From Acutalibacteraceae bacterium (lineage in GTDB: Bacteria; Bacillota; Clostridia; Oscillospirales; Acutalibacteraceae): a DNA stretch of 64,000 nucleotides. Of the stretch, positions 19,856-36,791 are shown one piece after another. The stretch spans positions 8,375 through 72,374 of the forward strand of contig JBJEPP010000106.1 of NCBI GenBank assembly GCA_051881295.1, in the 5' to 3' direction. The notes under the pieces were generated by a model. The model saw only the letters and a program-made list of their open reading frames with translations, made no database searches and was not told where the DNA came from. Within the stretch, counting starts at the first letter, position 1; every line of letters begins with the position of its first letter. The translations under genes were made by a program, and so were the position numbers.

Positions 19856-20956
19856 ATGAAAAAAGCTTTATCTGTTGCGTTGGCAATTCTGCTCATAATT
19901 TCAGGTGCAACACAAGTATTCGCCGCAACTCTTGACAGTGCCTCTGCCCTTATGTATGAAGATAACGGGGACGGAACATGTACCGTAACAAGCTACCGAG
20001 ATTTTAAAAACGATTATGTTGTTATTCCGTCCACATTAGGCGGTCTTACGGTTACTAAAATCGGGGATAAGGCATTCCAGCAAAAAACCGCCTTGGAAAT
20101 CGTAAAAATCCCTGATACCGTCACAGAAATCGGCAATTACGCTTTTTACGGCTGCACAAAATTAAATTCGGTTGGCTTCGGCGCCGATTCGGCAATTAAA
20201 ACCATTGGCGACTATGCTTTTAACGGGTGTAAAAACTTAACGGATATAAATATAAGGAATGCAGAGTCAGTCGGAAAGCTGTGTTTTTACAACTGTGTAA
20301 ATCTTAACACTGTTACAAACTATAGTCTGAAAACCGTTGGTGAAAGAGCATTTTGGAAATGTGAACAACTTAACTTTTTCAGATTTAAAGAAACTTTAGA
20401 GGTAATTGAGGATTACGCGTTTTCGTACTGTATCGCACTTACAGAGCTTGTATTCCCCGACAGCTTACGAAAAATCGGCAACAGTGCATTTTCAAACTGC
20501 ACGGCTGTTACCTCTGTCACATTCGGCGAGGGTGAATTGGAAATAGGCAATTACGCTTTTGAAAACTGCACCTCGCTTACCGAGGTTACTATACCTAAAG
20601 GCGTAACGGCAATAGGCACACACGCATTTTCTTACAGAGAGCCGGACAGCACAGAATTTGTTCCGGGAATAAAAATAAACTGCTACCTGGAATCTGTGGG
20701 TGTTACTTACGCTATAAAGACAGGCGCTCCTGTTTATATTATTGATTTGGACAAAACAGTAGAAAACTTTGGTGATTTTGACGGCAACGGCAAGGTTGAT
20801 ACCCTTGACGCACGCAAAGCCTTAAAGCATGCCTCTGCAACAGAGATTTACGAAATAACCGATGAAACGCTCTTGCTTTGCGATTTTGACAGAGACGGCA
20901 CTATCAGCGTTTATGATGTAAACCTCATATTGCAAAAAGTCTCGGGCATTAAGTAG
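19856..20956 (+). CDS. leucine-rich-repeat (BspA-type) surface protein with C-terminal dockerin
   Basis: Signal peptide MKKALSVALAILLIISG. Repeated IGxxAFxxCxxLxxV units. C-terminal DFDGNGKVDTLDARKAL / DFDRDGTISVYDVNLIL. ATG at 19856 follows GGGAGG. Confidence 0.8.
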   Translation: MKKALSVALAILLIISGATQVFAATLDSASALMYEDNGDGTCTVTSYRDFKNDYVVIPSTLGGLTVTKIGDKAFQQKTALEIVKIPDTVTEIGNYAFYGCTKLNSVGFGADSAIKTIGDYAFNGCKNLTDINIRNAESVGKLCFYNCVNLNTVTNYSLKTVGERAFWKCEQLNFFRFKETLEVIEDYAFSYCIALTELVFPDSLRKIGNSAFSNCTAVTSVTFGEGELEIGNYAFENCTSLTEVTIPKGVTAIGTHAFSYREPDSTEFVPGIKINCYLESVGVTYAIKTGAPVYIIDLDKTVENFGDFDGNGKVDTLDARKALKHASATEIYEITDETLLLCDFDRDGTISVYDVNLILQKVSGIK

Positions 20957-21629
20957 TTTTAACGGTAATAAAGCCTTCAAAACCAGCCTTTTTCAATTTT
21001 TTCAAATGGCTTTCGGCGTTTTCTTTTTTAGAAAAAGCCCCTACCTGCACCGTGTACAACACTTCGCTTTCTTGTGAAGTGTTGTTTTTATTTTCTGCCG
21101 GAACTTTCACTCCGTAATAATCGCAAACGCCTTTTGCAATAGCTTCACCTATAGCAGTTGTGTTTTTGATTATAAAATTACTGCCCTCTTTTGTATCGTG
21201 AAACTCACATTCACAATAAACGGTTATACCTTTAGCGGAATTTATTTCGTAAAAAGACGGTTTGGCATAGACACTTTCGGCACTTTTACCCGGAGTTATG
21301 GGAGAAAGCCTGTTAAATACAGCGTCTCCTACTTTCTTTCGCTCTCCCTTTAAATCGTAAAGAAGAATTTGCGTGCCGCCTGTTATATTGTGTTTTGCCG
21401 TTGCGTTAGTGTGAATTGCTATGTGTAAATCTGCGCCGAATGCATTACTTTCTTTAACGCGTTCATACATATCGTCATTGTATGTGCATTTTACCGAAAA
21501 GCCTGCTTTTTTAAGAAAATTTACACAAGCCTTTGCAATTTTATGACATTGCTCTTTTTCGTTTGTATTACCTGTGGCGTAAGTATTTGCACTTTGGTTA
21601 CTCGGTGAAACATAAATTTTTTCAGTCAT
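20949..21629 (-). CDS. endolysin: N-acetylmuramoyl-L-alanine amidase with C-terminal SPOR domain
   Basis: Amidase_3-like IYVSPSNQ...ADLHIAIHTNA. C-terminal YTVQVGAFSKKENAESHLKKLKKAGFEGFI (SPOR). The ATG at 21629 overlaps the holin stop (ATGACTGA). Confidence 0.85.
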   Translation of the reverse strand: MTEKIYVSPSNQSANTYATGNTNEKEQCHKIAKACVNFLKKAGFSVKCTYNDDMYERVKESNAFGADLHIAIHTNATAKHNITGGTQILLYDLKGERKKVGDAVFNRLSPITPGKSAESVYAKPSFYEINSAKGITVYCECEFHDTKEGSNFIIKNTTAIGEAIAKGVCDYYGVKVPAENKNNTSQESEVLYTVQVGAFSKKENAESHLKKLKKAGFEGFITVKTT

Positions 21630-21909
21630 TACTCTCAACCTTTTTTTCTTTTTCTCTGACATCGCAATCCGTACAGTAGGTCATAGCTCTGGCACTGTCG
21701 CTTATACCCTCTGTTGTAGGGTCAACAAGCACACCTAAAACCGCAAGCATATTTACTACAAGAGATAATAACTCTATGACGAAATCCTCGCTTACTTTAG
21801 GCACTATTTCCGCAAGAGCAAAAATCTGATAAATAAATGTTACTAAAAGCGTTGCTGTTGTAATGACAAAAGTCTTATTTTGAAGTCTTGCTTTAAGATT
21901 GATTTTCAT
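21622..21909 (-). CDS. holin (phiLC3-like family)
   Basis: 95 aa. N-terminal KINLKARLQNKTF, two TM helices and VDPTTEGISDS are typical of this holin family. Sits directly upstream of the endolysin. Confidence 0.8.
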   Translation of the reverse strand: MKINLKARLQNKTFVITTATLLVTFIYQIFALAEIVPKVSEDFVIELLSLVVNMLAVLGVLVDPTTEGISDSARAMTYCTDCDVREKEKKVESND

Positions 21910-21940
21910 TGAATTTCCCCTTTCAAAATGTATTTATACA

Positions 21941-22216
21941 CTACATTGTATTCAAATGATTTGGATTGTGAACACTTTGTTCTATTGTATTCAAACGGTT
22001 ACTCAGACTATGTACCTGTTCGCCCAAAACCAAAACGCTGCTTTCCGCTTTATACATTCGCTCAATCAACGAATTGTGTTTATCCTGTTTTTTCTCTAAT
22101 TGGTCTATTCTGTAAAGAGTTTTACTTTGGGACTTTTTATTACCGTAAATATAGCCTATAAGTGAAAAAACTCCTGAAATTAAAGCCACGATTATAGTTG
22201 TAACATTTTCGTTCAT
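21941..22216 (-). CDS. small N-terminally membrane-anchored coiled-coil protein (lysis-cassette associated, function unknown)
   Basis: One TM helix (TTIIVALISGVFSLIGYIYG) followed by a heptad-rich tail. ATG at 22216 preferred over the TTG at 22231. Confidence 0.5.
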   Translation of the reverse strand: MNENVTTIIVALISGVFSLIGYIYGNKKSQSKTLYRIDQLEKKQDKHNSLIERMYKAESSVLVLGEQVHSLSNRLNTIEQSVHNPNHLNTM

Positions 22217-22223
22217 AAGATAC

Positions 22224-22949
22224 CTATCCAACCATAAAATACTTATTCAGAATTTGTGTTCCGACTTCTGCTATTCCGAAATAACTGTCTGTACTGCCTA
22301 TATATTTTATATGTAATTCGGAGTTAATGTCATTACTTGTAGACACATTAAAGTATTTACCGTAATAGGTTTTTTCATTATAAGTAAAAGTCCCTCCCAC
22401 AGTAGTGGCTCCGTCTACATTAACAGCATTCGGTTTATCTGAAATTAAATGTATAAACGGATTACCGTATCTGTTATCTACATAACCGATAACTGCTGTT
22501 TCATCATTGTTTTTTGTAACGGCAGTACCATCGCTTAAATAACCTAAAACAGTGCCTGCTTCTTTAACCTCCATTGTAATATCAACTTCTGAAAAAACTG
22601 CGTTCAGGTCTGTTACACCTTGCCCTATGGCATACGGAAATGAAACTTTAGCTCCGTTTTCATCATACCAACTGAAAAATGCCGTACCGCTTTCACTTGT
22701 TGGCGATATTGTCGGTATAGTTATCTCCTGACCGACTGCACCCGTCACTAAATGAAATACCTCGCCTTCGCTCATAAAACGAACTGTGCCGTCTAACAAC
22801 GGTTCGATATTGGTAATACTGTTCATTGCTTCAACAATTTTTCTTGTAGACGAGTCTGCCGGAATATCAACACCCAGCTTGTGTAAACCCTTGATTCCGA
22901 TTTTGTTAATATCGGTAACTTCTTCAACTAATTCTGTTACAGTAGCCAT
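22224..22949 (-). CDS. phage structural/tail-associated protein, unknown function
   Basis: 241-aa ORF, start/stop-coupled within the late operon. Confidence 0.55.
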   Translation of the reverse strand: MATVTELVEEVTDINKIGIKGLHKLGVDIPADSSTRKIVEAMNSITNIEPLLDGTVRFMSEGEVFHLVTGAVGQEITIPTISPTSESGTAFFSWYDENGAKVSFPYAIGQGVTDLNAVFSEVDITMEVKEAGTVLGYLSDGTAVTKNNDETAVIGYVDNRYGNPFIHLISDKPNAVNVDGATTVGGTFTYNEKTYYGKYFNVSTSNDINSELHIKYIGSTDSYFGIAEVGTQILNKYFMVG

Positions 22950-23509
22950 TAACCTGCCTCCCTCAAAAGTTCCATTACCCTATCCATATCGCCGATAATA
23001 GTGCCTAAAAGTTTTTGAGTATAATCGTAAACCGCTTTTGTGCTTACACAGTTATCGCTTTCGTCCTTATGCTCTTCTACATTATCCATTTTTTTAAATA
23101 CCGCGCTGTAATCCTTCAGCTGCCCTTCGCAATAATTTTTAAGCATAATACAATATTCTTCATACTCGGAAAGCTCAGGCACGCCGCTGTCATTTACATT
23201 ACCTGAGAAAGAGCCTGCACCCACACTGAACATTGTAGGCGCGGGAGAATACATAAGCTCTAATATTCCGTTGTTTTCTTTATAAGCATACACACCTAAA
23301 CTAAATGTTCCCTTAGTAAGCGAAGGCACATAACACATATTGTTCATCAGCGGAACGGGAATGTTGTTAAAAGCTGCAGTAACCGTTAAATTTTCAAAGC
23401 TTTCGGGCAAGTCAAACTCACATTTTGTAACGCCGTATTCTCCGGCATTGATTTTAGCGCTTTCGGTTATTCGTACCTGTTCTTCTGTAACTTCTACTCT
23501 CAAAATCAA
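22949..23509 (-). CDS. phage protein, unknown function
   Basis: 186-aa ORF; its ATG overlaps the upstream stop. Confidence 0.55.
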   Translation of the reverse strand: MILRVEVTEEQVRITESAKINAGEYGVTKCEFDLPESFENLTVTAAFNNIPVPLMNNMCYVPSLTKGTFSLGVYAYKENNGILELMYSPAPTMFSVGAGSFSGNVNDSGVPELSEYEEYCIMLKNYCEGQLKDYSAVFKKMDNVEEHKDESDNCVSTKAVYDYTQKLLGTIIGDMDRVMELLREAG

Positions 23510-24696
23510 CTATCCTTTCCGTATTTTTTATACATTGCATATAAATATTCTTTATATGTTCCGTACTTTGTTCTGACGCTTTGATGGGATTCAAATTCTT
23601 CTTTAGTAAAGATACCGCTGTAGCCCGTTCTTGAAACAAACTCCTTGTATGATACCGGGTATCTGATAACCTCCGAATTGTTTTTTGAACTACTCTTACT
23701 GCTGCTTTTACTTCCGCTTGAGCTTGCTTTGCTTAAAGATAAATAATAGTTTCTGTCGGCATTTGCCTGATCACGCTTGGCCTCTGCCTCTTTAAACGCC
23801 ATTTCCTTTTCAAATTCTTCTCTGTCTTTGGCATCCTGATATTCTTTAAATGCATAATCACGGTCGCTTTCCCAGGCGTCTACTTCAGCTAAAAATCGGT
23901 CAAACTCACGGTCGCTCATAGATGTTAGTTTATCTAAAAGGTATTCTCCGTCTTTATAATACCTTTCAAGTGTATCTAAATATTTATCGTAATCGTCACC
24001 GTCTAATGAACGGAGCAACTGAACATCACTGACCATTTTTTCCGTTTCATCATTATACTGATTATATGCTCTGTCTCTTAGGTCAAGCGCCACATCGTTC
24101 AAGCCGCTTAAATATTCATCGTACGCCTGAAGACCTGCAGTAGCCGCATAAGAACTGCCGTAGCCCCCGGTTAAAGCCGACACCTTACCCACAGTATCTG
24201 CCATAGCTTTTTTACCGTTTTGAGAATACAACTCACGGTATTGCTCATACAACGGATCGGCATTAAGATTGTATTTAAAATCTTCTCTGTTTAAAATGCT
24301 GTTTAGTATACTGTCGATTTCATCTGCATATTTACTGCTGTAATCACCTACGGGATTTTTCTCCCAAGCGGCAAGCGCCTTTTCAGCATTCAGAACCTCA
24401 TTACTTTTTTTATATGTAGGTCTTTTAGATACAGTCGTTTTCGCTGAGGTATATGTTTTCGTTGATGCGGTTTTGGTTGAAGAAGAGCCGGAGCCGTTAA
24501 TTTTATTCCAAGTATTAACACCGACAATACCGTCAACCGCAAGACCGTTTTTCTTTTGGTAATCTTTAACGGCGGCTTGAGTTTTGCTGCCAAACTGTCC
24601 GTCTACAACTAAGTTATAGCCGTTATCGTTTAATTTCTGTTGAAGTTTTTTTACTTCGCTGCCCGAAGAGCCGTATTGTAAAGTTGAATTTGCTAT
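23506..24696 (-). CDS. phage protein with N-terminal PG_binding_1 domain; apparent non-canonical AUA start
   Basis: The frame of ORF 23506..24252 is open up to 24696. It encodes (I)ANSTLQYGSSGSEVKKLQQKLNDNGYNLVVDGQFGSKTQAAVKDYQKKNGLAVDGIVGVNTWNKI, a textbook peptidoglycan-binding repeat. No ATG/GTG/TTG lies in frame upstream of 24252. ATA at 24696 sits 5 nt after AAGGGTGA. Confidence 0.7.
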   Translation of the reverse strand: MANSTLQYGSSGSEVKKLQQKLNDNGYNLVVDGQFGSKTQAAVKDYQKKNGLAVDGIVGVNTWNKINGSGSSSTKTASTKTYTSAKTTVSKRPTYKKSNEVLNAEKALAAWEKNPVGDYSSKYADEIDSILNSILNREDFKYNLNADPLYEQYRELYSQNGKKAMADTVGKVSALTGGYGSSYAATAGLQAYDEYLSGLNDVALDLRDRAYNQYNDETEKMVSDVQLLRSLDGDDYDKYLDTLERYYKDGEYLLDKLTSMSDREFDRFLAEVDAWESDRDYAFKEYQDAKDREEFEKEMAFKEAEAKRDQANADRNYYLSLSKASSSGSKSSSKSSSKNNSEVIRYPVSYKEFVSRTGYSGIFTKEEFESHQSVRTKYGTYKEYLYAMYKKYGKDS

Positions 24697-24709
24697 TTAT
24701 ATCACCCTT

Positions 24710-26476
24710 TCATATATTTGACTGTTGGGTACCGTCTGCTATATAAAAACCGCTTACAAATATTCTTGTGCCTGCGGACATAGCCTGTGCGCATCTTATA
24801 AAAACATCACCCGTTTCATATTGTATACATGCGCCGAAAATACCGCCGCTGCTGATAGTTGCCAAAGGCGTTTGGAATACCGGATTTTTTCCTGCGTGCA
24901 GAACATAGTAGTTTTTATTTGCCTCTACATCCTGAGAGAGCTCCATACGGGCTCTTATATAACACATATTAAGACACGGTATATATGTTACAGATGAAGC
25001 CCAATGCAGATTTTCTGCACTCTCCAATAAAGTGAGTTCAACATCCTCCGTAACCATTTTACCTTTTAACCTTAAATCCCACGCAACTGCTAATTCGTTT
25101 TCATTTTCGGCAAAGCAGCCGAAAGACGCACCGTTTCCACCTTTTCTTATATTAAACGGAATATTCGCACTTGGTATATCATAACTGACGGTCATTGAAT
25201 TTTCGGTAATATCATCGCTTACAGTTAAATTCAAAACATAAGAATTTGACGGTGATAAGCTGCCGCCGATAACGGCAGGTGAGCTTAAAACCTCTTGTTC
25301 ACCGAATATGCTTTCGGAATTACTCCTCCTGAAGCTGCCTACTAATTCAGGAGTATTGCTGCCGTTAATTGAACTGTAGCCTAAAGTGTAATCGAGCAAC
25401 AAGTATGTGCCGTCATTCAGAAGATTACCTTCTTCATCACACCGTTTTGCACTTATCATTTTTACAGACGGCGGTGAATAAGGTTCTACATAAATATCAG
25501 CAGTTTTAGTAGCAGTTAGACCTCTGCTGTCTTTTAGAGTAACTTTAACGGTTATACTGCCTGATGAAGTTAATGTGAATGTAGCAGGTACTTTGCTGCT
25601 GCTTAAATCACCCAAAGCAACCGAGTAGCTCAATGCTTTTGCTCCGTACATCAATGTAACATCGCTTACGCTGACCTTTAACTTGCTTTTACCTTGCACG
25701 AGGGACTCTATATGTTCGGGCACAGCGGTACCTACCTTTTCATATACCAATTTAAAATCAGGACTGAATGTGGAATTGTTTGGAATTTTAACTTTTACAT
25801 TGTACGATTTTGAGCCGATTTTTTTACTGCCGTTGTAGGTGTTAACAGTAACCGACATATTACCCACAGCAGAGGCGGTAACTTCGCTTGCCCAAGAAAC
25901 AGGTACCGTAAATTTTGCGGAGTTTTCGCCGGCAGACAAGGTCTGTTTCGAACTTTTACTGCCGAGAACCCAAGTAATACTGTGGCTGAATCCTGACGAA
26001 GCACTGTTTACAGTCGCTGTAATTTCAGTATTGATATTTACACTTGTTGACGAAAAACTCAAAGAAGACGCTCTGGGAATATCGGTACACTTAAACGAGC
26101 CGCTGACAGTACCTCCGGAGAGACCCGTACCGCTCATAGAGAAAGAGCCGCCTACGGCTACGGTTAATGTGCCATCAGAATTGTGGGAAACATTACCCGT
26201 CCACGAAGCTAAAAGAACAGAAGCACTGTTTCTTGTATCAATTTTCAGATTTTGCGAAACCTTTACAGTCCCTCCGACAGTTATCTTGGCGCTGTTTGCA
26301 CTTTCGTTTAAGTTATATGCGGAATCGCTGTAACCGTCATTTCGCTTAACATAAAGCTTTACCGTTATGTTACTTGTGTTGTTTGCTACACTTTGTGAAT
26401 TTTGAGTTACATTGAGCCAAATATCGTATTTGCCTGATGATGAACCCGTTGTGTTACCGTAAATATTAACTGCCAT
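24710..26476 (-). CDS. phage structural protein, DUF859-like N-terminus (candidate receptor-binding/tail fibre protein)
   Basis: 588 aa, Ser/Thr/Asn-rich and beta-rich. N-terminal YDIWLNVTQNSQSVANNTSNITVKLYV...NVSHNSDGTLTV...CTDIPR resembles the siphovirus DUF859 family as I recall it. Confidence 0.55.
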   Translation of the reverse strand: MAVNIYGNTTGSSSGKYDIWLNVTQNSQSVANNTSNITVKLYVKRNDGYSDSAYNLNESANSAKITVGGTVKVSQNLKIDTRNSASVLLASWTGNVSHNSDGTLTVAVGGSFSMSGTGLSGGTVSGSFKCTDIPRASSLSFSSTSVNINTEITATVNSASSGFSHSITWVLGSKSSKQTLSAGENSAKFTVPVSWASEVTASAVGNMSVTVNTYNGSKKIGSKSYNVKVKIPNNSTFSPDFKLVYEKVGTAVPEHIESLVQGKSKLKVSVSDVTLMYGAKALSYSVALGDLSSSKVPATFTLTSSGSITVKVTLKDSRGLTATKTADIYVEPYSPPSVKMISAKRCDEEGNLLNDGTYLLLDYTLGYSSINGSNTPELVGSFRRSNSESIFGEQEVLSSPAVIGGSLSPSNSYVLNLTVSDDITENSMTVSYDIPSANIPFNIRKGGNGASFGCFAENENELAVAWDLRLKGKMVTEDVELTLLESAENLHWASSVTYIPCLNMCYIRARMELSQDVEANKNYYVLHAGKNPVFQTPLATISSGGIFGACIQYETGDVFIRCAQAMSAGTRIFVSGFYIADGTQQSNI

Positions 26477-27428
26477 CTGACCACCTCACTTCTAAGCCGT
26501 TGCTTGTAATATCAAATGTAAAAAAACCGTCAGCTGTATTACCGATTTTTAAAAAATCAAGTATTTCGGCACGGGTAATGTACAAATTATTTCCCGAAAT
26601 ATAAGCCACTTCGGTAATACCTTGGTAAAAAGAAAGTCTGTCGTTTGTAAAACGGGCTTTAATGTTACTGTCGCTTCTTCCGATTTCAATGCCGTAAATA
26701 CCGTCTTCCAATTCGCCGCGGCGAATATACACATTAAGGTCCGACACTAACTCAGTTACCTTGCCGCCTAATGTAGATAAATCTTCATTCAGAGTTTCTA
26801 AGGAATTATAAAAATTTTCCGTAATATTTTCGGTAGTTTGCGTAACTGCAGAGCCTATGCGTTCTTCTAATTCTTCAACATCTGTTTTAACGGCATAAAT
26901 GTTTTCGACCTGCGACATTATATCCTCTGCCTGAACAGTAAGCTGTGAATTGGAGGTCTTTTTAAAATTCTCTAAATCGGATTTTATTTCTTCGTTTGTC
27001 TGTGCATTGACCGTTACTCTGTCTGCCGTTTCTGAAATGGCTGTTTCTACATCATTTTTATACTCCCCAAACTCTGTCTGCGATAAAAATTCACCTCGGG
27101 CGCTTTGAATTATCTCTGTTTTTGACTGTTCTATGGCTGTTTCATAATTCATTTCGATTTCGCCGCTTACACGCAAAATCTCGTTTTTTAAATCCTGAAA
27201 CTTTTTCAGGCTGTCGCTTTTTAGCTGAATAATCTGAGCTTTACTTTCGTCTGTTGCATCATTTGTTTTTCTATTGACTAATTGAGTAATGCTTTCTTCC
27301 TTTTCCGAAAGAGCCATTGACAAAACATCATTCAGTTCATACAGATAGTTTTTCAAAAGCAGAAACTTGTTTTCGTTGGAGTATTTTTGAGAAGTAAGGT
27401 TCGGTACGGTTAAATTAAAATCATACAT
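26466..27428 (-). CDS. phage structural protein with long coiled coil
   Basis: 320 aa with extended heptad-rich E/K/Q region and a beta-rich C-terminus. The ATG overlaps the upstream stop (ATGTATGA). Confidence 0.5.
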   Translation of the reverse strand: MYDFNLTVPNLTSQKYSNENKFLLLKNYLYELNDVLSMALSEKEESITQLVNRKTNDATDESKAQIIQLKSDSLKKFQDLKNEILRVSGEIEMNYETAIEQSKTEIIQSARGEFLSQTEFGEYKNDVETAISETADRVTVNAQTNEEIKSDLENFKKTSNSQLTVQAEDIMSQVENIYAVKTDVEELEERIGSAVTQTTENITENFYNSLETLNEDLSTLGGKVTELVSDLNVYIRRGELEDGIYGIEIGRSDSNIKARFTNDRLSFYQGITEVAYISGNNLYITRAEILDFLKIGNTADGFFTFDITSNGLEVRWSDGS

Positions 27429-29554: not shown

Positions 29555-29565
29555 AAGCCCTCCTT

Positions 29566-29772: not shown

Positions 29773-29858
29773 TGTAAATCTCCTTTGAATGTTTGATTAT
29801 TTTATTTATTCAATAACTTTTATTAAGTGCTGTAATACAACCTTGCTGTTTGCCGTTC

Positions 29859-29887
29859 CGGCACCGTTTTTATTTTTCCCGGTGCCG
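29859..29887 (-). other. stem-loop in the 215-nt non-coding gap downstream of the capsid gene
   Basis: CGGCACCG-13 nt-CGGTGCCG perfect 8-bp stem with no U-tract. Possible processing or stability element, or a weak terminator. Confidence 0.35.
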
Positions 29888-29987
29888 AAATGACAAAAAA
29901 GTTTATATTGTTACAAGGCTGTAACACAAACTAAATAATCAGCGGTTTTATGTATTACGGCAGTCGCTGTACTTTACCTGCAGTCTT

Positions 29988-30998
29988 TTAGTTTTCTTTA
30001 GCTGTTCCGCTGAATGTTGAACCGCTTTCTATTCTTAAAAGATACTCTTCAACAAGTCGTTTAGCGGTTTTAAGACCTTTCCAGCCTACTGACGAGCGCT
30101 GATTAAGCGGGTCGTTGCCATAGCCTTTCTGTTTTACGATATGCTCAACGCCGCCGCCCTGAACACTTGTTACGCCGAATGCGTCTGCACCCATGATGAG
30201 TGTGGCGAATACTGCACAGCCGCTTGCACCCTCGTTCCAGATTTTTGCCTCGGTACTCTCAACAAAACGAACACCGCCGAGACAACCTATTTCGCCGTTA
30301 AGCATATTTTCAGGAGTTGTGTATTTTTGAACCTCCATCCACTGATTGCCTGCTTCCTGCATAAGGTCATAAGCAACATAAGGGTGAATAATGCCTACAT
30401 AGTAGCCGTCAATTTTAGGTGCGTTCATAGCTTTAAGCTCTGCCGCCGCTTTGAAAACATCTTTTACTCTGAGAAGAGAGGTATTATCAATTTCGCTTCT
30501 TGAAGTTACCTCAGTTTCTACACCGTCTGAAACCTTTGGACAATAAAGCACATTCGTACCGCCTACGATTTCGTTACGGACAATAGTATCCATTGTAAGA
30601 CCGGCTTGTGAAGCCAACTGTTTTGTAGCTTCAACAATAGTATTGTCAATAGCGGTAAGCTCTAAAAGGTCGCTTTGTTCAATGTAATCGCCGTACTGCT
30701 CAACAGTTGCCGAAACAGTTGATACATTAAGCTTGTTACCGGTAGGAGTTACACCCTCTGTAAGCGGTGTAAGAGCCTTGGGAAGAGATGAAAACTTACG
30801 GAATTCTATAATCTTACCGCCGTTCTTCGGAATATCCCGTTTTTGACCGAATTGGTCGTGAACAAGATACGGAGAAGCAAGGGTAATAAGAGTTTTATCG
30901 TAAAAGGTTTTCATTTCTGCAGAAAGCTCTGCAGTAGATGTAGTCTGTATATTTTCGCCTGCCGCGAAAAGTTGAATGTTCATAAAATTTTCTGTCAT
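29988..30998 (-). CDS. major capsid protein, N4-gp56 family (HK97 fold)
   Basis: EMKTFYDKTLITLASPYLVHDQFGQKRDIPKNGGKIIEFRKF...LTEGVTPTG...VEQYGDY matches the N4-gp56-type MCP pattern. N-terminus MTENFMNIQLFAAG carries an L27-like Prp site. Confidence 0.8.
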   Translation of the reverse strand: MTENFMNIQLFAAGENIQTTSTAELSAEMKTFYDKTLITLASPYLVHDQFGQKRDIPKNGGKIIEFRKFSSLPKALTPLTEGVTPTGNKLNVSTVSATVEQYGDYIEQSDLLELTAIDNTIVEATKQLASQAGLTMDTIVRNEIVGGTNVLYCPKVSDGVETEVTSRSEIDNTSLLRVKDVFKAAAELKAMNAPKIDGYYVGIIHPYVAYDLMQEAGNQWMEVQKYTTPENMLNGEIGCLGGVRFVESTEAKIWNEGASGCAVFATLIMGADAFGVTSVQGGGVEHIVKQKGYGNDPLNQRSSVGWKGLKTAKRLVEEYLLRIESGSTFSGTAKEN

Positions 30999-31021
30999 AA
31001 AAAATCCTTTCTTGGTGCTTA

Positions 31022-31786
31022 TTAAAATTTGATGTTTGCACCGTTTTCTACTTGTTTTAATATTTTTAAAATATCTTTTGAGGACAAGGAATTAACATCG
31101 ACAGAGGTTACAACGGCACTTTCGGAGGATACGCCGTTTTCTAAAGGTCTGCGGCCTTTTGTTTCAATATTTTTAACCACCTGCTCACGGGCCTTAGTTG
31201 CCGCATATTTCATAGCGCCGCCTAAGATTTCGTCTTTATGAGAGGTCTCAAAAGACGCTCTCAAAGGCGCTCCTGCCAAAAGAAGCTGAGCAAAGAGTTC
31301 GTTGTTTTTAAGCTCGTTTCTTAAATCAAATTCAGGGTAAAGCTCTTTTAAACTTTTACTTTCTTCTACCCAAAGCTTAGCCTTGTTGCCTAAGCGAATT
31401 CTTCGCGCCTCAGCTTCATTCTTTTCATTTTCATCGGATGGGCTTTCAAAGTCTGACTCTTTCACCCCGTTTTCGGAATTTATAAGAGTATCAAAAAGTT
31501 TTTCCTCATCGCCTGCTTCTAAGCCGTATTTTTCAAGCAATTTGTTAACATTTTCAGAAACGCTGTTTTTATAATCTTCTAAAAGCTTTGTTTCTTTAAA
31601 CCGTTTGTCAATTATCTCTTGAGTCCTCTTGTGGAACTGCTCTTTAAATTTGCCGCTTATAAGCTGTTCAAATTCTTCGTCAGCTCCGTTTGTTTGCTCG
31701 GCGTCAGCAACAGTATCGCCCGTATTTTCAGCGGCCGCAGAGCCGTCTGAAAAAAGCTGTAAATTGAAAAATTTTTTTAAATTCAT
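31022..31786 (-). CDS. scaffolding protein
   Basis: 254 aa, acidic and helical, located between protease and capsid. N-terminus MNLKKFFNLQLFSDG. Confidence 0.7.
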   Translation of the reverse strand: MNLKKFFNLQLFSDGSAAAENTGDTVADAEQTNGADEEFEQLISGKFKEQFHKRTQEIIDKRFKETKLLEDYKNSVSENVNKLLEKYGLEAGDEEKLFDTLINSENGVKESDFESPSDENEKNEAEARRIRLGNKAKLWVEESKSLKELYPEFDLRNELKNNELFAQLLLAGAPLRASFETSHKDEILGGAMKYAATKAREQVVKNIETKGRRPLENGVSSESAVVTSVDVNSLSSKDILKILKQVENGANIKF

Positions 31787-31862
31787 TTTTCATCCTTTCT
31801 CATCGTCTTTCCGAAGTGTCATATATAAATCTGCAGAATTTATAACCGTATAAAAAATCATT

Positions 31863-32183
31863 TTATTCCCATTTAATGTAGTCGGGATATGTTTGATACA
31901 TTATGTAAAGTCCTGTCAGAATGCAATCTAAAATACCTTTAACACGCTCTTTTGAGAAATCAAAAAACTCTATTTCAAAGCAAATATAACCGTCTCTTAC
32001 AATGTCACGCTTTAAATGAAGCCTGTCGGCACTTTCTTCATCTTTCAAAACATTTATAAGGGTACATACGAGAGCAGATATACCTGCACATACAATGTCT
32101 TTACCGGGAGCGTCAAAACCTGTGTGACCGTCTATTATGATCAGCACACGGTCATAGTATTCTCTATGAAAGACCTTTGTCAC
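31863..32183 (-). CDS. Prp-family cysteine protease (ribosomal-processing protease homologue), likely prohead maturation protease
   Basis: 106 aa. The DGHTGF...GKDIVCAGISAL His/Cys dyad context and the length match Prp (DUF464). Confidence 0.8.
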   Translation of the reverse strand: MTKVFHREYYDRVLIIIDGHTGFDAPGKDIVCAGISALVCTLINVLKDEESADRLHLKRDIVRDGYICFEIEFFDFSKERVKGILDCILTGLYIMYQTYPDYIKWE

Positions 32184-33859
32184 ATCACATCAGCTCCCTC
32201 ATAGGCGCCGCTTGATATTCTTGAAATTACCGCACTTTTGCCCTCAAATTCCATCATACTGATTGCGGCAAGAGCCTGTACCTTATTCTCAGGATTAAAC
32301 ATACCTGCACTGTAAAGCTGGAGCGCCAATTCATTTTGGCTGATTTTAGAAAACGGACTGCCTGTTTCTGCGCCGACTTTAATATCAAAAATAGGCTTTC
32401 TTTCTCCTAACTCAACACCGAAAGCAACACCCTGACTTCTGCTTTTTATACCGTTGTTATCGTAAGAAATATACTCTTCTTCACCGTTCGCTCCGATTAT
32501 TCTGAAAAATCTCGGCTCATCATAAAACTGCCTTATCAGTTCTATTACAAGGCGGTTAAGCTCAGAAAATGCTCTGTAGCCTCCTTTTACCATATCCCTT
32601 GTAAGCTTACTGCCTGCCTCTTGAAGCGCCGCAATGGCAGACGCCGCCGTAACACCGCTTGAAACACCGCCCTGAGAGAAATCACGGTTACCGCTTGTTT
32701 CTTTAAGCTCATCTATTTTTGAGTTTAAAATATCCATATAAATACCCGATATACCGGACATTTTGATTTCTCTGATGCTGTCTTCACCCAAATTACTGCC
32801 CGAAACATGAACAAAACTATTAGTCCAGTCTGCAAACTCTTCTTCATTAACAGCACCGCAAGCGTTTATAAAATACCTCGGTGTTGTTGCCATGGTTGCA
32901 TTTTTAACAAGGGCGTTTGAGAGAATGTCTATCTGCTTTTGAGTATTTTTCATAATATCTACATAACCGAATCCGCAAGGCGAACCCTCTTCTACAAACA
33001 GCGAATCAAAAACAAACGGATACATTCCGTGATTGTAAAAGCCCGATTCACTGTATTCGCTGTCGTTTTCAGAAGCATACAAAAGTGTTTCGTTGCAAAA
33101 TTTCATATAATGCAAAACCTCTGTACCGTTAACATATTGCTTGTAATAACGGTCTATAACAGCACTTTTGTTAGTAGTGTCAACGGTATCGTCATAAACA
33201 TATTTAGCTATTTCAACACTTGAATTACCTAATTTCCCCTTTAATTCAGGGTATAGAGAAACAAGCGTATCATTATCCGTAAGCTCAATATGAAAAATAT
33301 TTTTACTTTTTTGAATATCTTTAACACCGGGCTCCCAAAAAAGATTAAGCAAATCAATTTGTTTAATTTCCACATCGCCTAAGCCGTTGCTTTTTCTGGG
33401 ATTCCAAAAAGCACCGTATACTCCTGTGCCGTTTTTCAGTTTATACCACCAGGTATCGCTGTAGACCTTTTCAAAATTGTTTCTTTCAAAAATAACGGGA
33501 AGAATTTGCGAGAGTACCTCGGCGGCTTTTCTGTCGCTTTCTTCTCTGGGCAAGCAGTTAACACTTGGGAAGTTATCCATAGCGTCAGCGTGTTTATTTG
33601 CAATGGAATTAAAAAGCCATGCACTGCCGCTTTCGGTTCCGTTGCTTCCGTTAATAACATCAAACTGACGAAGCCTGAACCATTGCTCATTTTCTATAAT
33701 TCTGTTTTCTAAAGATGTTTTACCCTCTTTATACTTTTTCAGAATTTCCAAAGCATTTGAAACTTCTTCTTCGCCTACAATACCGCTTTTGCCTACGCCA
33801 TCTGACGGCATTTCTTTTTTTATACCTTTTTGGGGTTCTTTCTTTTTGTTTTCCATCAA
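32180..33859 (-). CDS. portal protein
   Basis: 559 aa, immediately downstream of TerL with an overlapping start. Confidence 0.75.
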   Translation of the reverse strand: MMENKKKEPQKGIKKEMPSDGVGKSGIVGEEEVSNALEILKKYKEGKTSLENRIIENEQWFRLRQFDVINGSNGTESGSAWLFNSIANKHADAMDNFPSVNCLPREESDRKAAEVLSQILPVIFERNNFEKVYSDTWWYKLKNGTGVYGAFWNPRKSNGLGDVEIKQIDLLNLFWEPGVKDIQKSKNIFHIELTDNDTLVSLYPELKGKLGNSSVEIAKYVYDDTVDTTNKSAVIDRYYKQYVNGTEVLHYMKFCNETLLYASENDSEYSESGFYNHGMYPFVFDSLFVEEGSPCGFGYVDIMKNTQKQIDILSNALVKNATMATTPRYFINACGAVNEEEFADWTNSFVHVSGSNLGEDSIREIKMSGISGIYMDILNSKIDELKETSGNRDFSQGGVSSGVTAASAIAALQEAGSKLTRDMVKGGYRAFSELNRLVIELIRQFYDEPRFFRIIGANGEEEYISYDNNGIKSRSQGVAFGVELGERKPIFDIKVGAETGSPFSKISQNELALQLYSAGMFNPENKVQALAAISMMEFEGKSAVISRISSGAYEGADVM

Positions 33860-35220
33860 TTTCTCCTTTTATATAAATCTAACGGGTCATCGCCTATGGG
33901 AATATTTTGTTTTTTGTATGTTGGCGGTATAGGTCTTGCCATACACATATAACGGACCTCGTCTGCAATGTGGTCTTCGCCGCATGTATCTAAATCCTCG
34001 GGGCTGTTTGCACTAAAGGTTTGCTCGGGAATCGTTCTTATAAACCCCTTGCAGTTTTTAAAAACATACATCATAGGTATACCCTCGTCATCAAAGCACA
34101 GTCTGTAATGGACCTGCATCCAGCCGGGTATTCTTTTATTGTCTCCGCGGTTAAAGAAAATGCCGTTTCTGTTTGCGGATTCAATTATGGCTTCACCCCT
34201 TGAAGCGTCCCATATAGACGGGTCTGCAACTCCTATAATATGTTTATTCTTTAACCAACGGTGTTCTCTTTCTATTCGTGCTATTTCTGAAAAAATCTTT
34301 TCGGGGGGCCATTTAACTCCCTCATTAGGCGTTTTTGTGCAACCGTATAACTCCAGTATTCTGTAAAGCCTGCCGTCATAATCCACAGCCCACCAGGCGC
34401 ACGAAAAAGGCTTAGCGTAGCCAAAGTCGAAAGACCTGTATACAGTCCAATCATGAGGTATTTCAAAAGGCTCTATTACATGGGTAAACTTACCGTCTTC
34501 GTAATGCTCTTTAACATCTCTGAATTCTTCAAAAAACTGACCGTCAAAAATATCCCAATTACCGAAGCGGTGAGCCTGACGAAGCTTCTCCGGCAGAGCG
34601 TCAAGAACTTTTACATATTCGGGATTTGTTTTCATTAAAACCGAATTATCGTCTATAGTCGCAGGAATAAATATGTAATCGTCCGGATCTTCACCCGCTT
34701 CGTACCTGCCCTTAACGAAAAGCCTTTTGAACCAATTATGTCCTACACCGCCGGGGTTTCCCGTAAAGTACATTCGAGGTTTGAAATCTTCACGGGTAGT
34801 ACGGTTACATGTCATTAAAAACTGAACCTGAGCGTATGTAAAATGAGTACACTCTTCAACGCCGATTACATCATATTCCTGACCCTGATACTGATAAATA
34901 TCATTTTCACTGTCGCAATAACCCAGCCTTATGCGTGAGCCGTTAGGGAATATAAAGGCTCTTTCATCCCGCTTATAACGGGCAATTCCGTTTAATTGCT
35001 GCAACATAGGCAAAAGGTGGTTTTCCCGAAGCTCAGGCAAGGTTTTTCTTAAAAGCAACAGCTTTAACCCGTCATATTGTAAAGCCAATAATATAAACTT
35101 TGTTCTCAGCGCCCATGATTTTCCCCCGCCTCTTGCACCGCCGTAGCCTATAAACCTGTTATTGCATTTAAAGAAAAGCTTTTGTTTTTCATTCGGTTCC
35201 GATATTACTAATTTTTTCAT
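33856..35220 (-). CDS. terminase large subunit
   Basis: Walker A GYGGARGGGKSW, Walker B/coupling YDVIGVEECTH, C-terminal nuclease-type acidic motifs. Confidence 0.85.
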   Translation of the reverse strand: MKKLVISEPNEKQKLFFKCNNRFIGYGGARGGGKSWALRTKFILLALQYDGLKLLLLRKTLPELRENHLLPMLQQLNGIARYKRDERAFIFPNGSRIRLGYCDSENDIYQYQGQEYDVIGVEECTHFTYAQVQFLMTCNRTTREDFKPRMYFTGNPGGVGHNWFKRLFVKGRYEAGEDPDDYIFIPATIDDNSVLMKTNPEYVKVLDALPEKLRQAHRFGNWDIFDGQFFEEFRDVKEHYEDGKFTHVIEPFEIPHDWTVYRSFDFGYAKPFSCAWWAVDYDGRLYRILELYGCTKTPNEGVKWPPEKIFSEIARIEREHRWLKNKHIIGVADPSIWDASRGEAIIESANRNGIFFNRGDNKRIPGWMQVHYRLCFDDEGIPMMYVFKNCKGFIRTIPEQTFSANSPEDLDTCGEDHIADEVRYMCMARPIPPTYKKQNIPIGDDPLDLYKRRN

Positions 35221-35229
35221 TTGTTCCTT

Positions 35230-35508
35230 TCATTTTGAATATTCCGATATTTCTTCTTGAAATGTTATCAGTATACTGTCGTCTGCTGCCGTTTCCTCTT
35301 CGTCCCCTAAAAGGGCGCAAAGCTCTTTTAATGCGCTGACGCTGTCTTTTAAAAGTTTAATATCTAATTCTTTACTGCCGTTTTCTTTAAAACCTTTTCT
35401 GGCGGCCTTTACCATATCGTCAATCAACGCGCTAAGATTTAGCGAGGCTGACGAAATGCGTTTTTTTCTTAATAATTCCTGTTTTTCATAAACCTTTTCT
35501 TCTGCCAA
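35230..35508 (-). CDS. small helical protein directly upstream of TerL (possible small terminase subunit)
   Basis: 92 aa. The assignment rests on position only; no motif recognised. Confidence 0.35.
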   Translation of the reverse strand: MAEEKVYEKQELLRKKRISSASLNLSALIDDMVKAARKGFKENGSKELDIKLLKDSVSALKELCALLGDEEETAADDSILITFQEEISEYSK

Positions 35509-35512
35509 CTAA

Positions 35513-35740
35513 TCACTCCGTACCGCATAGCTCATACATCAAAGAAACACTGCGATAATGACTGCACTTTTTACCGCAATTCACGCTGCAAACACATTTT
35601 TCATGATTTAATTTTTTTACATTGTCAAGAAAACTGTGAATACAAACAGTGCCTTTTACATTACCTTCACATTTTATAAAACTATCGCCCTCCTCAAGAT
35701 AAAACGGACATTGAATATCTGCTTCAATATTTTTTGACAT
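35513..35740 (-). CDS. cysteine-rich small protein (9 Cys; possible zinc-binding regulator), first gene of the late operon
   Basis: MSKNIEADIQCPFY...CEGN...C...CVCSVNCGKKCSHY. ATG at 35740 lies 7 nt after AGGAGGG. Confidence 0.5.
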   Translation of the reverse strand: MSKNIEADIQCPFYLEEGDSFIKCEGNVKGTVCIHSFLDNVKKLNHEKCVCSVNCGKKCSHYRSVSLMYELCGTE

Positions 35741-35760
35741 ACACAAACCCTCCTGAAAAT

Positions 35761-35930
35761 TTTACAAAGTGTCATTTATGGTATTGACATATCTTGTAAA
35801 ATGTTTTATATTGTTATTGTAAGTTGTACAGATTTCCGAACTGCAACACCATTATAGTACAGTGTTCTGTACTTTTCAACCCAAATAAGAACATTTGTTC
35901 ACTTTTTGTGAAATTTGTACAATTACAAGG
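35761..35930. promoter_or_regulatory. divergent switch region with promoter and TTGTA(C/A)A-type operator repeats
   Basis: Plus strand: TTGACA (35784-89), 17-nt spacer, TATATT. Repeats: TTTACAA/TTGTAAA flanking the -35, TTGTACA (35824-30), perfect palindrome AGTACAG-TGTT-CTGTACT (35856-73) and TTGTAcaatTACAA (35915-28). Confidence 0.55.
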
Positions 35931-35950
35931 TGTTTTAGGAGTGGGTATTA

Positions 35951-36286
35951 GTGAATATGTATGATAAAATCGACTTTTTATGTGAAGAAAAAGGCATAAA
36001 ACCGGCCACATTATGCAAAGAATGCGGAATAAACAAAAGCACATTATCTGAATTAAAGCACGGCAGAACAAAATCACTTTCTGCACAAACGCTAAGTAAA
36101 ATCAGCCAATATTTTGGCGTCAGCTTAGACTTTTTTAATGAAGATGATTTTACTGAAACACAAAAAGACGAATTATTTGAAAAAAGAAAACTGTTATTTG
36201 ATATGTCTAAAAGAGCCACAGCAGAGCAGCTTGACTCGTTTATAAATATGATAAAAACAATAATTCCCAATGATGATGCAGAATAA
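35951..36286 (+). CDS. XRE-family HTH repressor (cI/ImmR-like)
   Basis: KPATLCKECGINKSTLSELKHGRTKSLSAQTLSKISQYFGVSLDFF. GTG start 5 nt after GGAGTGGG. Confidence 0.85.
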   Translation: MNMYDKIDFLCEEKGIKPATLCKECGINKSTLSELKHGRTKSLSAQTLSKISQYFGVSLDFFNEDDFTETQKDELFEKRKLLFDMSKRATAEQLDSFINMIKTIIPNDDAE

Positions 36287-36297
36287 CGGAGGCTAAA

Positions 36298-36522
36298 GTG
36301 AACACAATTCTGATAAGACAAATAAAAATGCCTATTACAATCAGGGCATTTACCGTTCCCGATTCAAACGGCGACTTTAATATTTACATAAATGAAGATT
36401 TATCCCCTGAACAAAAACAGCAGTCGTTAGAGCATGAAAAGCTCCATATAAAATACGGACATTTTTCTGCTTCTAAACCCGTATTCTTAATGGAAGCAGA
36501 AGCAAATCCAAATATTTTTTAA
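36298..36522 (+). CDS. minimal ImmA/IrrE-like zinc metallopeptidase (74 aa)
   Basis: HExxH motif (LEHEKLHIKYGH) preceded by FNIYINEDLSPEQ, as in DUF955 proteins. Located directly downstream of the XRE gene. GTG follows GGAGG. Confidence 0.6.
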   Translation: MNTILIRQIKMPITIRAFTVPDSNGDFNIYINEDLSPEQKQQSLEHEKLHIKYGHFSASKPVFLMEAEANPNIF

Positions 36523-36703
36523 AAAAATTATTTGTTAACAAATTGTTCATATTTTTGTGACAGACATGCAACATTGAAATGGTATATAATAAGCATAGAC
36601 AATTTAATTGCTAACTCTCTTAGTAATTCATTTCATTTTCTCTTCCCAAAACAGTTCCCGTTCTCTCCCGGGGGCTGTTTTACTTTTGTGAAAAAGTGCA
36701 GAA

Positions 36704-36759
36704 CGCATAAAAGGGGCTGTAAAAAAGCGTAGACCGCATAAAACAGGGCTGTAAAAAGC
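36704..36759 (+). repeat. tandem 25-nt direct repeats CGCATAAAA(G/C)(G/A)GGGCTGTAAAAA(A)GC
   Basis: Copies at 36704-36728 and 36735-36759. A third partial GGGGCTGTTTTAC lies at 36671-83. The second copy forms the 5' arm of the terminator. Confidence 0.6.
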
Positions 36760-36791
36760 TAAAAGTTTTTACAGCCCTGTTTATTGTTTTT
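36741..36791 (+). terminator. strong intrinsic terminator at the right end of the element
   Basis: AAACAGGGCTGTAAAAA-loop-TTTTTACAGCCCTGTTT followed by a T-rich tract. Confidence 0.8.

Follow-up and report, generated by a model that had tools for sequence, protein, structure and literature searches.

Gene content and boundaries of the locus

We analysed a 64,000-nucleotide stretch of the chromosome of an Acutalibacteraceae bacterium (assembly GCA_051881295.1, contig JBJEPP010000106.1, positions 8,375 to 72,374; hereafter the window, to which all coordinates refer). It carries a phage-like element, a 15.6-kb block (20949-36522) comprising 19 head, short-tail and lysis genes in a single orientation and a divergent pair that encodes an XRE-family repressor and a miniature HExxH protein. 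In the open reading frame (ORF) map, every real gene from 20949 to 35746 is on the minus strand; the genes are closely spaced, and many neighbours overlap by 1-17 nt. Genes were assigned by scanning every element ORF, along with the larger ORFs elsewhere in the window, against Pfam, PHROG and NCBIfam profiles. Together with the ORF map, these scans reproduced the co-oriented particle-and-lysis gene set (endolysin, holin, N4-gp56 major capsid protein (MCP), scaffold, Prp, portal and TerL) that had been proposed in an earlier reading of the same DNA, made without database searches (the original prediction). The element genes are listed in operon order, followed by the divergent unit; locus counts refer to the relatives described below.

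35513-35740, minus strand: Cys-rich protein of ~75 aa, first operon gene (no family match)
35230-35508, minus strand: 92-aa all-helical protein at the position of the small terminase subunit TerS (no TerS family match)
33856-35220, minus strand: large terminase TerL (Terminase_3/Terminase_6N)
32180-33859, minus strand: portal, P22/SU10 type (Pfam P22_portal 6e-26; phrog_156 2.7e-77)
31863-32183, minus strand: Prp-type cysteine protease (Pfam Peptidase_Prp 1.1e-14; NCBIfam Prp models)
31022-31786, minus strand: scaffold-like protein with an N-terminal NLQLF↓S motif (phrog_13908 1.9e-45)
29988-30998, minus strand: MCP, N4-gp56 family (TIGR04387 271 bits; phrog_1357 1.8e-85)
29566-29772, minus strand: 68-aa small protein adjoining the MCP gene (phrog_15239)
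29177-29554, minus strand: 125-aa virion-module protein (phrog_12105 1e-23; found in 73 loci)
27421-29193, minus strand: 590-aa tail nozzle homologue (phrog_511 1e-60)
26466-27428, minus strand: 320-aa coiled-coil fibre-like tail protein (weak phrog_1885/588 minor tail/fibre matches; conserved in 60 loci)
24710-26476, minus strand: 588-aa tail protein (Pfam DUF859 1.7e-34; phrog_372 tail protein 2e-73)
23506-24696, minus strand: ~396-aa PG_binding_1 virion protein (PG_binding_1 4.9e-21, N-terminal; continuous open frame)
22949-23509, minus strand: 186-aa tail protein (tblastn/blastp matches in 46 loci)
22224-22949, minus strand: 241-aa fast-evolving distal tail protein (no family match)
21941-22231, minus strand: 96-aa membrane/coiled-coil protein beside the lysis genes (phrog_3999/1863, function unknown)
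21622-21909, minus strand: holin (Pfam Phage_holin_1 2.3e-18; phrog_297)
20949-21662, minus strand: endolysin, N-acetylmuramoyl-L-alanine amidase with SPOR domain, last operon gene (Amidase_3 1.8e-15, SPOR 4e-7; phrog_435)
35951-36286, plus strand: XRE-family repressor, divergent from the structural operon (HTH_26 8.6e-12, HTH_3; phrog_8/4/3 repressors)
36298-36522, plus strand: 74-aa HExxH mini-metallopeptidase (weak Peptidase_M78 match, E = 0.003)
36741-36782, plus strand: strong terminator hairpin closing the xre-HExxH unit just ahead of tex (17-bp stem, then a T run)

Two small conserved proteins come after the MCP; the nozzle, fibre-like, DUF859 and PG_binding_1 proteins follow, then two unassigned genes (186 and 241 aa), and the distal end holds the membrane/coiled-coil protein, the holin and the endolysin.

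As had been proposed from the letters alone, no element ORF matched an integrase, excisionase, replication or tape-measure family in the profile scans, nor did any match a recombination family; the same families were unmatched in the larger ORFs elsewhere in the window, shorter ORFs there lying outside the scan. Sheath and tube families likewise found no match among the element ORFs, and a P22-type portal and a nozzle homologue are present. No tRNA was found at the element or in the window, and a search for flanking att or direct repeats returned only short matches at chance level; on att repeats this agrees with the original prediction. A Rfam scan of the locus gave no RNA family, and comparison of the element with 50,697 phage records revealed no DNA similarity. 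Both flanks consist of host genes, as predicted: an LRR_5+dockerin gene and an ABC amino-acid transporter on the endolysin side, and Tex, a radical SAM gene and purine genes on the XRE side.

Conservation of the element across host species

A scan with one genome per species identified 164 genomes with a relative of the element; 80 loci (designated by L numbers) were fetched and all window proteins were mapped onto them. Forty-five loci, termed type A, show the window architecture from the HExxH/XRE pair to the endolysin, with an XRE-to-TerL distance of 673-794 bp and a total length of 13.8-16.5 kb. Type B, with 15 loci and a further three that are truncated, shares this operon, with both the Cys-rich gene and the 92-aa gene, but has neither the XRE/HExxH pair nor a Prp gene. 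Types A and B together account for ~60 species-level genomes with this minimal architecture; a further 12 loci are too fragmentary to be placed in a class. An assembly chimera was rejected as an explanation, the same junctions being present in many independent assemblies on contigs of up to 340 kb.

The chromosomal surroundings are conserved as well. A convergent LRR_5+dockerin gene follows the endolysin in 29 loci, succeeded by the same ABC substrate-binding gene where the sequence extends, and the genes upstream of the HExxH gene are 2-oxoacid_dh, PG_binding_1 and YdjC in about 31 type A loci, Trk-like in four, and tex in the window lineage. The sister species L083 (about 86% DNA identity), whose MCP is 98% identical, has the element at the same Tex site in the same order (radical SAM gene, tex, HExxH, XRE, element, LRR gene), so that the comparison of the tex-proximal locus with relatives, proposed in the original prediction, came out in favour of a fixed site. 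Element DNA is 85.5% identical to that of L083, and the host genes beside it are 85.5-88% identical; this equal divergence implies that the two species inherited the locus from a common ancestor.

Seven of the loci (L002, L052, L053, L057, L068, L070, L072) are full phages at other chromosomal positions, and encode a REP_ORF2-G2P rolling-circle-type Rep, a Terminase_2 TerS at the place held here by the 92-aa protein, Tad8/DUF3850 early genes and giant proteins (1149 to 2852 aa, PBECR3). Type A portals diverge from one another by no more than 32% but from every phage portal by 40% or more, and the nozzle separates elements from phages in the same way; the Rep-bearing relatives form a separate lineage at other loci, rather than copies of this element that have kept integrase and replication genes. 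The MCP is extremely conserved across all classes: phage and element versions share 86-88% identity, against a difference of more than 40% between their portals. Close homologues of the MCP number in the thousands, and many lie on 50-340 kb contigs of metagenome-assembled genomes (MAGs) of Acutalibacteraceae, Oscillospiraceae and Clostridia. In three cases (JAZQLZ01, JAZNGU01 and JAZNYZ01), a full phage and a domesticated element were observed in the same MAG; co-resident pairs include L003 with L053 and L077 with L057.

Purifying selection and co-divergence with the host

We compared ratios of nonsynonymous to synonymous divergence (dN/dS) between the window and L083 and found values from 0.012 (TerL) to 0.12 for all genes except that of the 241-aa tail protein (0.27). 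Across 24 nearest-neighbour pairs the medians were 0.02-0.18, with 0.03-0.05 for host flanks; the synonymous divergences behind these ratios are about 0.5-2, and TerL and the MCP are the most constrained. Every element gene is under purifying selection. With intact ORFs across loci and dN/dS well under 1, there is no sign of the frameshifts or relaxed selection that the original prediction had named as contrary evidence.

Distances in the host protein YdjC (up to 35%) correlated with those in TerL, MCP and portal across 30 type A species (Spearman 0.73-0.84), compared with 0.88 between YdjC and a second host gene; the element gave a Mantel r of 0.85 (p ≤ 0.0005). With these linked host genes as comparators, the element appears to be transmitted vertically and conserved across the host clade. 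Shared architecture, fixed site, dN/dS and co-divergence with the flanks all support the domesticated reading, akin to a gene transfer agent (GTA) or to PBSX, that had been offered for this DNA.

Homology to the gene transfer agent of Faecalibacterium

The original prediction recognised no described short-tailed, Prp-containing system of this kind in Clostridia; FpGTA of Faecalibacterium prausnitzii is one (Borodovich et al., Nat Commun 2026, PMC12946183; preprint 10.1101/2024.11.15.623857, November 2024). Its operon I (10.5 kb) encodes a TerS-like protein free of a DNA-binding domain, TerL, portal, Prp, N4-gp56 MCP, nozzle and a protein annotated 'TolA', and its operon II (5.5 kb), ~125 kb away, encodes fibres, a receptor-binding protein (RBP), an SGNH/GDSL 'RBP anchor', holin and endolysin (PMC12946183). 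The particles have 40-nm (T=3), tail-less-looking capsids, a proteome dominated by operon proteins, and 8.4-8.9 kb of random host DNA (PMC12946183). FpGTA gene clusters were reported in Faecalibacterium alone and no GTA event was given for Acutalibacteraceae, while GTA-like packaging was also noted, without an identified locus, in Gemmiger, Onthomonas, CAG-115 and R. callidus (PMC12946183).

For comparison we used a Faecalibacterium-type locus, L088 (MT836159.1), searched by tblastn with the window proteins. The MCP it encodes matches the Faecalibacterium MULTISPECIES MCP at every residue, and its gene order is the accession order of the FpGTA particle proteins. The following proteins were found in the same order in both loci:

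MCP: 57.5% identity
Portal: 50% identity
TerL: 40% identity
'TolA'-like protein: 31% identity
Nozzle: 30% identity
Scaffold: 30% identity

The nozzle homologue aligns over 627 positions at 30% identity (E = 3e-69) with the protein of the Faecalibacterium locus that stands in the place of RCH50846, which the FpGTA authors assigned as tail nozzle (PMC12946183). Likewise, the 396-aa PG_binding protein is 31% identical to a 421-aa Faecalibacterium protein and, judged by alignment and position, is the homologue of the 'TolA' particle protein RCH50844, an abundant component with 914 spectra in particles (PMC12946183). Prp-type leader motifs are also present in the Faecalibacterium proteins.

The two systems therefore share a podovirus-derived gene set devoid of replication and integration genes, near-ubiquity in their respective host clades, a common order (small TerS-position protein, TerL, portal, Prp, scaffold, MCP, two small proteins, nozzle, 'TolA'-like protein), and a distal module of fibres, SGNH/GDSL 'RBP anchor' (here in relatives), holin and endolysin. 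They differ in host, Ruminococcaceae for FpGTA and Acutalibacteraceae here, and in architecture: FpGTA is divided into two operons ~125 kb apart, whereas the present element, like all type A and B loci, is one contiguous operon with similar gene content. Prp and scaffold are fused in the Faecalibacterium locus and separate here; the element has in addition the Cys-rich first gene, the XRE/HExxH pair and LexA boxes, whereas no regulation has been described for FpGTA. The full-phage relatives are closer to the element (MCP 72-88% identity) than FpGTA is; with Rep-encoding phages as nearer kin, independent domestication is as likely as a single ancient event, and a separate origin of the two elements is possible.

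As side observations, L088 has a GC content of 62% and an internal MDLQLF↓ADGG site in its fused Prp-scaffold protein (arrows mark the predicted cleavage point), and L088, L089 (MT835662.1) and other MT83xxxx records are GenBank 'UNVERIFIED: Bacteriophage sp.' contigs from human faecal samples. It seems that records of the L088/L089 type are operon I loci of FpGTA from Faecalibacterium that were deposited as phage genomes.

Repressor pair and regulatory DNA

The XRE gene adjoins the element in 45 loci, and the HExxH gene co-occurs with it in 43, with H46, E47 and H50 invariant. The repressor half of the proposed XRE/ImmA pair was confirmed; its 'ImmA' half is the 74-aa mini-metallopeptidase listed above, with its weak Peptidase_M78 match. 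A PDB profile search with this protein gave marginal matches only, to the minimal metallopeptidase MJ1213, and we regard it as a candidate ImmA/IrrE-like anti-repressor. Such an XRE/HExxH layer would resemble ImmR/ImmA of ICEBs1. The intergenic DNA contains the following sites:

35784-35900: regulatory region, within the 204-bp XRE/operon intergenic stretch
35879 (TTGAAA) to 35851 (TATAAT), minus strand: promoter P_struct (promoter match)
35784 (TTGACA) to 35812 (TATATT), plus strand: promoter P_xre (promoter match)
35857-35872: palindrome GTACAGAACACTGTAC, filling the -35/-10 spacer of P_struct
35826-35841: site related to palindrome GTACAGAACACTGTAC, just downstream
35889-35900: LexA (Cheo)-type box GAACAAATGTTC, 9 nt upstream of the -35 element (consensus CGAACAAATGTTCG/T)

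P_struct and P_xre, which lie face to face, score highest of all sigma-70-like promoters over the 16 kb scanned, and GAACN4GTTC sites occur only three times in 64 kb. The region is strongly conserved in 46 loci (promoter in 38 of 46, palindrome in 28-43 of 46, LexA core in 32 of 46). The palindrome and its related site are likely XRE operators. Type B loci carry LexA boxes in 15 of 15 cases, in one to three copies less than 500 nt upstream of the Cys-rich gene and often ~66 nt apart; L016, L018, L030 and L039 are among them. Because type B has LexA boxes and no XRE gene, the host SOS regulator may be the one that controls the operon, with XRE/HExxH as an added type A layer; the conserved boxes argue for direct SOS control by the host.

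Comparison with other phage-derived systems

Under published criteria, a GTA or viriform has structural and lysis genes and no replication, excision or integration genes of its own (Kogay et al. 2022, PMC9662315), and the element shows this content in the profile scans. The same criteria ask for vertical transmission, for particles that enclose at best a part of their own locus and essentially random host DNA, and for induction of a subpopulation by cellular regulators; on particle content the indirect hints diverge, the canonical TerS being replaced but the MCP 86-88% identical to that of full-size phages. RcGTA-type agents resemble the element in a head-tail-lysis set of ~15 kb, absence of replication and integration genes, vertical descent and purifying selection, and perhaps also in a non-sequence-specific TerS and host-level regulation; they differ in their siphovirus-like tail, HK97-type head with a dedicated protease, scattered loci and phylum, and their origin is independent of that of the element.

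Among phages, uncultured Oscillospirales podophages (L002, L052, L053 and L068) share TerL, P22-type portal, scaffold, N4-gp56 MCP (72-88% identical), nozzle and DUF859; Prp is shared with the closest of them only. The cultured Bacillus phages Page and Pony and Paenibacillus phage API480 have the same structural module, with 36% MCP identity for Page and API480. The podophages differ in having Rep, Terminase_2 TerS, early genes and proteins of more than 1100 aa, in their other loci, and in lacking the Cys-rich and 92-aa genes.

Phage satellites have no tail or lysis genes but retain an integrase, att sites and a replication module. Capsid-forming phage-inducible chromosomal islands (cf-PICIs) are similarly small elements (10-15 kb) with their own capsid, portal, terminase and repressor; a cf-PICI or other satellite was rejected here, as nozzle, fibre, holin and endolysin genes are present and int, rep and att are absent. 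A tailocin was rejected too, with heads, portal and TerL under the strongest constraint.

PBSX of Bacillus subtilis is chromosomally fixed; controlled by an Xre-type repressor and induced in connection with SOS, it fills its particles with host DNA and releases them by lysing the cell, and it yields uniform 13.4-kb host reads. The element shares with PBSX and skin the regulatory logic alone. PBSX is myovirus-like, with a contractile tail, a tape measure and a length of ~28 kb, whereas the element is short-tailed with Prp, and the PBSX head genes show no homology to those of the element beyond fold level. A contractile-tail prophage of PBSX type finds no counterpart here, the scans having matched no sheath, tube or tape-measure family.

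Interpretation and alternative explanations

The locus is best read as a domesticated, chromosomally fixed, podovirus-derived particle-and-lysis element, a GTA-like viriform of the FpGTA kind and a homologue of FpGTA, to which we assign a probability of roughly two in three. From the gene content and regulatory motifs we infer how such an element would work, from induction through Prp processing and packaging of host DNA to delivery. In most cells, the XRE repressor would occupy the GTAC-palindromes that lie within the structural promoter and directly behind it; LexA would probably be bound to the neighbouring SOS box, and the two together would prevent transcription of the 19-gene operon. Repression would be lifted in a subpopulation by DNA damage, or by some other signal, acting through RecA/LexA and the HExxH protease. 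Procapsids would then be built from portal, scaffold and N4-gp56-type MCP, with Prp trimming the NxQLF↓A/S leaders of MCP and scaffold, and TerL with the 92-aa helical partner, in place of a DNA-binding TerS, would fill the heads by headful packaging. As the element cannot excise or replicate, the host chromosome would be the sole packaging substrate. Nozzle, fibres and a variable receptor-binding module would be added to the heads, and holin and amidase would lyse the cell and free particles loaded with host DNA.

Four observations weigh against this reading. Both here and in the sister species, the gene for the 396-aa PG_binding protein is without a canonical start codon. The co-divergence test rests on genes adjacent to the element, so that, taken by itself, it is also compatible with transfer of the whole region. 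The link between the 92-aa protein and the TerS-like protein of FpGTA is positional (hhalign E = 0.058). Finally, an MCP 86-88% identical to that of full-size phages suggests a capsid perhaps not smaller than the 15.6-kb locus, in which case the classical 'cannot package itself' criterion would not apply.

A domesticated particle that does not transfer genes, PBSX-like or otherwise, would be DNA-filled and selected for killing competitors, altruistic lysis under SOS, release of DNA or biofilm material, or interference with related phages. Its repressor, SOS and lysis logic would be the same as in PBSX, the FpGTA authors keep a non-transfer option open (PMC12946183, Discussion), the rapid evolution of a distal tail gene (dN/dS 0.27) would suit any function relying on adsorption, and related active phages are co-resident in some carriers (L003 with L053, L077 with L057). 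However, TerL and portal are the most constrained genes, which places DNA packaging itself under selection, and the nozzle homologue is kept, although none of these features tells killing from transfer; we consider such a particle unlikely, though likelier than the other alternatives. Less probable still is a domesticated lateral transducer, in which SOS induction would start headful packaging in situ from a site in the locus and export the adjoining chromosome, headful after headful, in one direction, moving a conserved region with the ever-adjacent LRR-dockerin surface protein gene at much higher frequency than the rest of the genome. This version would have full-size capsids, as suggested by the MCP identity of 86-88% to phages whose sequenced loci exceed 20 kb.

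We hold it to be quite improbable that the locus is a mobile mini-phage or satellite, that is, a 15-kb temperate element that uses a host recombinase or a helper phage (such as one of the Rep-encoding relatives) to integrate and replicate and arrives repeatedly at the same site. Full phages with 80-88% identical TerL and MCP exist, at times in the same genome; the flank on the XRE side varies by lineage (YdjC, TrkA/TrkH-like, Tex, ribosomal operons), and IMG/VR records fragments of the element as viral. On the other hand, a search of IMG/VR found no circular or terminally redundant 15-16 kb version, only fragments or provirus-trimmed pieces, and neither att repeats nor an integrase was found in the window or annotated flanks. 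In addition, divergence equals that of the flanks in the sister pair and tracks YdjC over 30 species, a full phage is co-resident in only three carrier genomes, and the canonical TerS has been replaced. The null hypothesis set against domestication in the original prediction, an ordinary prophage remnant decaying after deletion of both ends, could draw on the gene without a canonical start codon and on a distal tail module unlike that of most relatives, but is refuted for practical purposes: identical 'deletions' would have to recur or persist in ~60 species of the same architecture, with identical boundaries in 45, all ORFs are open with dN/dS of 0.01-0.18 over synonymous divergences of about 0.5-2, the start-less PG_binding segment is itself constrained (dN/dS 0.083), and the regulatory DNA is conserved.

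Implications

The podoviral kind of GTA has already been described in FpGTA; what is new here is a member in a second Oscillospirales family, Acutalibacteraceae, where homologous domesticated podoviral elements appear fixed in ~60 species, mostly from ruminant and other animal guts. The element is unsplit, with its repressor/anti-repressor pair, promoters, operators and LexA boxes still joined to the structural operon, and could plausibly represent a stage in evolution from a temperate podophage to the split FpGTA. It provides a search model for such elements in other Clostridia and a testable hypothesis of SOS induction for a class of elements that lacks described regulation. If the particles do move host DNA, they would be a major means, so far overlooked, by which genes spread through rumen and hindgut communities.

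Packaging, capsid and small head-side proteins

TerL is the most constrained gene of all (dN/dS 0.012 against L083; median 0.021 across pairs), with the MCP close to it (0.016). The 'putative TerS' of the original prediction found no support in the profile scans: the 92-aa protein at that position matched no TerS family in Pfam, PHROG or NCBIfam. A PDB profile search gave nothing meaningful and there was no structural match; a single-sequence AlphaFold2 (AF2) model shows four helices at low confidence. The Faecalibacterium protein at the same position is of near-equal size (94 aa), both being small, and by position alone the 92-aa protein is the counterpart of the FpGTA 'TerS lacking a DNA-binding domain'.

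The Cys-rich first gene is found neither in the FpGTA locus nor in the full-phage relatives. Residues C12, C25, C52, C60 and H62 are invariant in 54 sequences, a C,C,C,C,H pattern from which the protein probably binds zinc. Searches of Pfam, PHROG, NCBIfam and PDB sequences found no match, nor did a Foldseek search of PDB at E<1 with its AF2 model (pLDDT 74.5); a single-sequence search returned one homologue and a profile search 63, all unnamed.

The Prp protein has the GH...DIVCAG catalytic dyad. The MCP leader, MTENFMNIQLF↓AAGEN, holds an N-terminal Prp cleavage-type motif (NIQLF↓A) that is present in 76 of 82 MCPs, and the scaffold leader, MNLKKFFNLQLF↓SDGS, retains its motif in 52 of 63 orthologues. 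Both leaders resemble the L27-like leader cleaved by Prp in Staphylococcus phage 80alpha. Type B elements have lost their own Prp gene and kept the leader motif, so that host Prp could serve them. The 68-aa protein has a median identity of 83% in 80 loci and a dN/dS of 0.025 against the sister, and the 125-aa protein is a possible head-tail adaptor. We also observed MCP genes that are ~75-90 codons longer (411 aa) in L075, L081, L082, L097 and L099 and in proteins P0111-P0119; the extra stretch, which may be an insertion or decoration domain, follows residue ~250 of a capsid protein that is otherwise 85-88% identical.

Tail, virion and lysis proteins

A '248-aa' ORF of the original prediction proved to be the 3' part of the ~396-codon frame at 23506-24696, which has an intact N-terminal PG_binding_1 domain and a Q/A/E-rich C-terminal part; orthologues are 381-416 aa long. 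A 67-aa ORF at 24390-24593, inside this gene, was discarded as spurious. At the ancestral GTG start (24694-24705, minus strand), TAA stands at codon 3 (GTG ATA TAA ATA GCA), and a 1-nt indel is present at the same spot in L083 (16290-16305). About 146 codons precede the first canonical start, and this stretch has a dN/dS of 0.083; since these codons are still under purifying selection, alternative initiation is suggested, either at a non-canonical start (ATA?) or by re-initiation after the two-codon mini-ORF.

The 186-aa protein matches the N-terminal part of larger tail proteins in relatives (median 530 aa); its homologue in L001 has 694 aa with SGNH/GDSL-hydrolase domains (Lipase_GDSL). Given the SGNH/GDSL 'RBP anchor' in FpGTA operon II (PMC12946183), it is likely to be an RBP anchor. 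The 241-aa protein is 54% identical to its sister counterpart, compared with 82-98% for other element proteins (neighbours 85-90%), and its position is taken by other, larger genes in most other loci, for instance in L001 by that of a 694-aa GDSL-lipase protein. We regard the 241-aa protein as a candidate receptor-binding protein within a swapped, variable host-recognition module. Next to the lysis genes, the 96-aa protein has a dN/dS of 0.055 against L083, and the endolysin shows 61-78% identity in 47 loci.

Host neighbourhood

Named type B loci are L016, L018, L027, L028, L030, L032, L034, L039, L041, L047, L066, L067, L069 and L077. Their intergenic spacers are all 100-350 bp larger and AT-rich, and the upstream flank in the three examined (L016, L028 and L030) is a ribosomal-protein/nusG or rpoA operon. 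An LRR-dockerin gene follows the endolysin in type B wherever the sequence reaches that far.

In the window, the LRR_5+dockerin gene (BspA-type; 19823-20956, plus strand) is convergent with the operon and overlaps the endolysin stop by 8 nt. This neighbour is kept even where the other flank differs (YdjC, Trk, Tex or ribosomal operons) and is fast-evolving (39-58% identity); it may be travelling cargo or functionally linked, for example as a surface receptor. Homologues of the ABC substrate-binding gene in metagenome contigs (49-78% identity, orthology uncertain) have no LRR or element neighbours. The surrounding window genes scanned are ordinary metabolic, transport and sporulation genes: a spoIIGA - sigE-like sporulation pair lies ~9 kb from the element (10193-11813, minus strand), and large purine and pyrimidine biosynthesis operons occupy 41-62 kb of the window, an ordinary host context consistent with the chromosome of spore-forming Clostridia.

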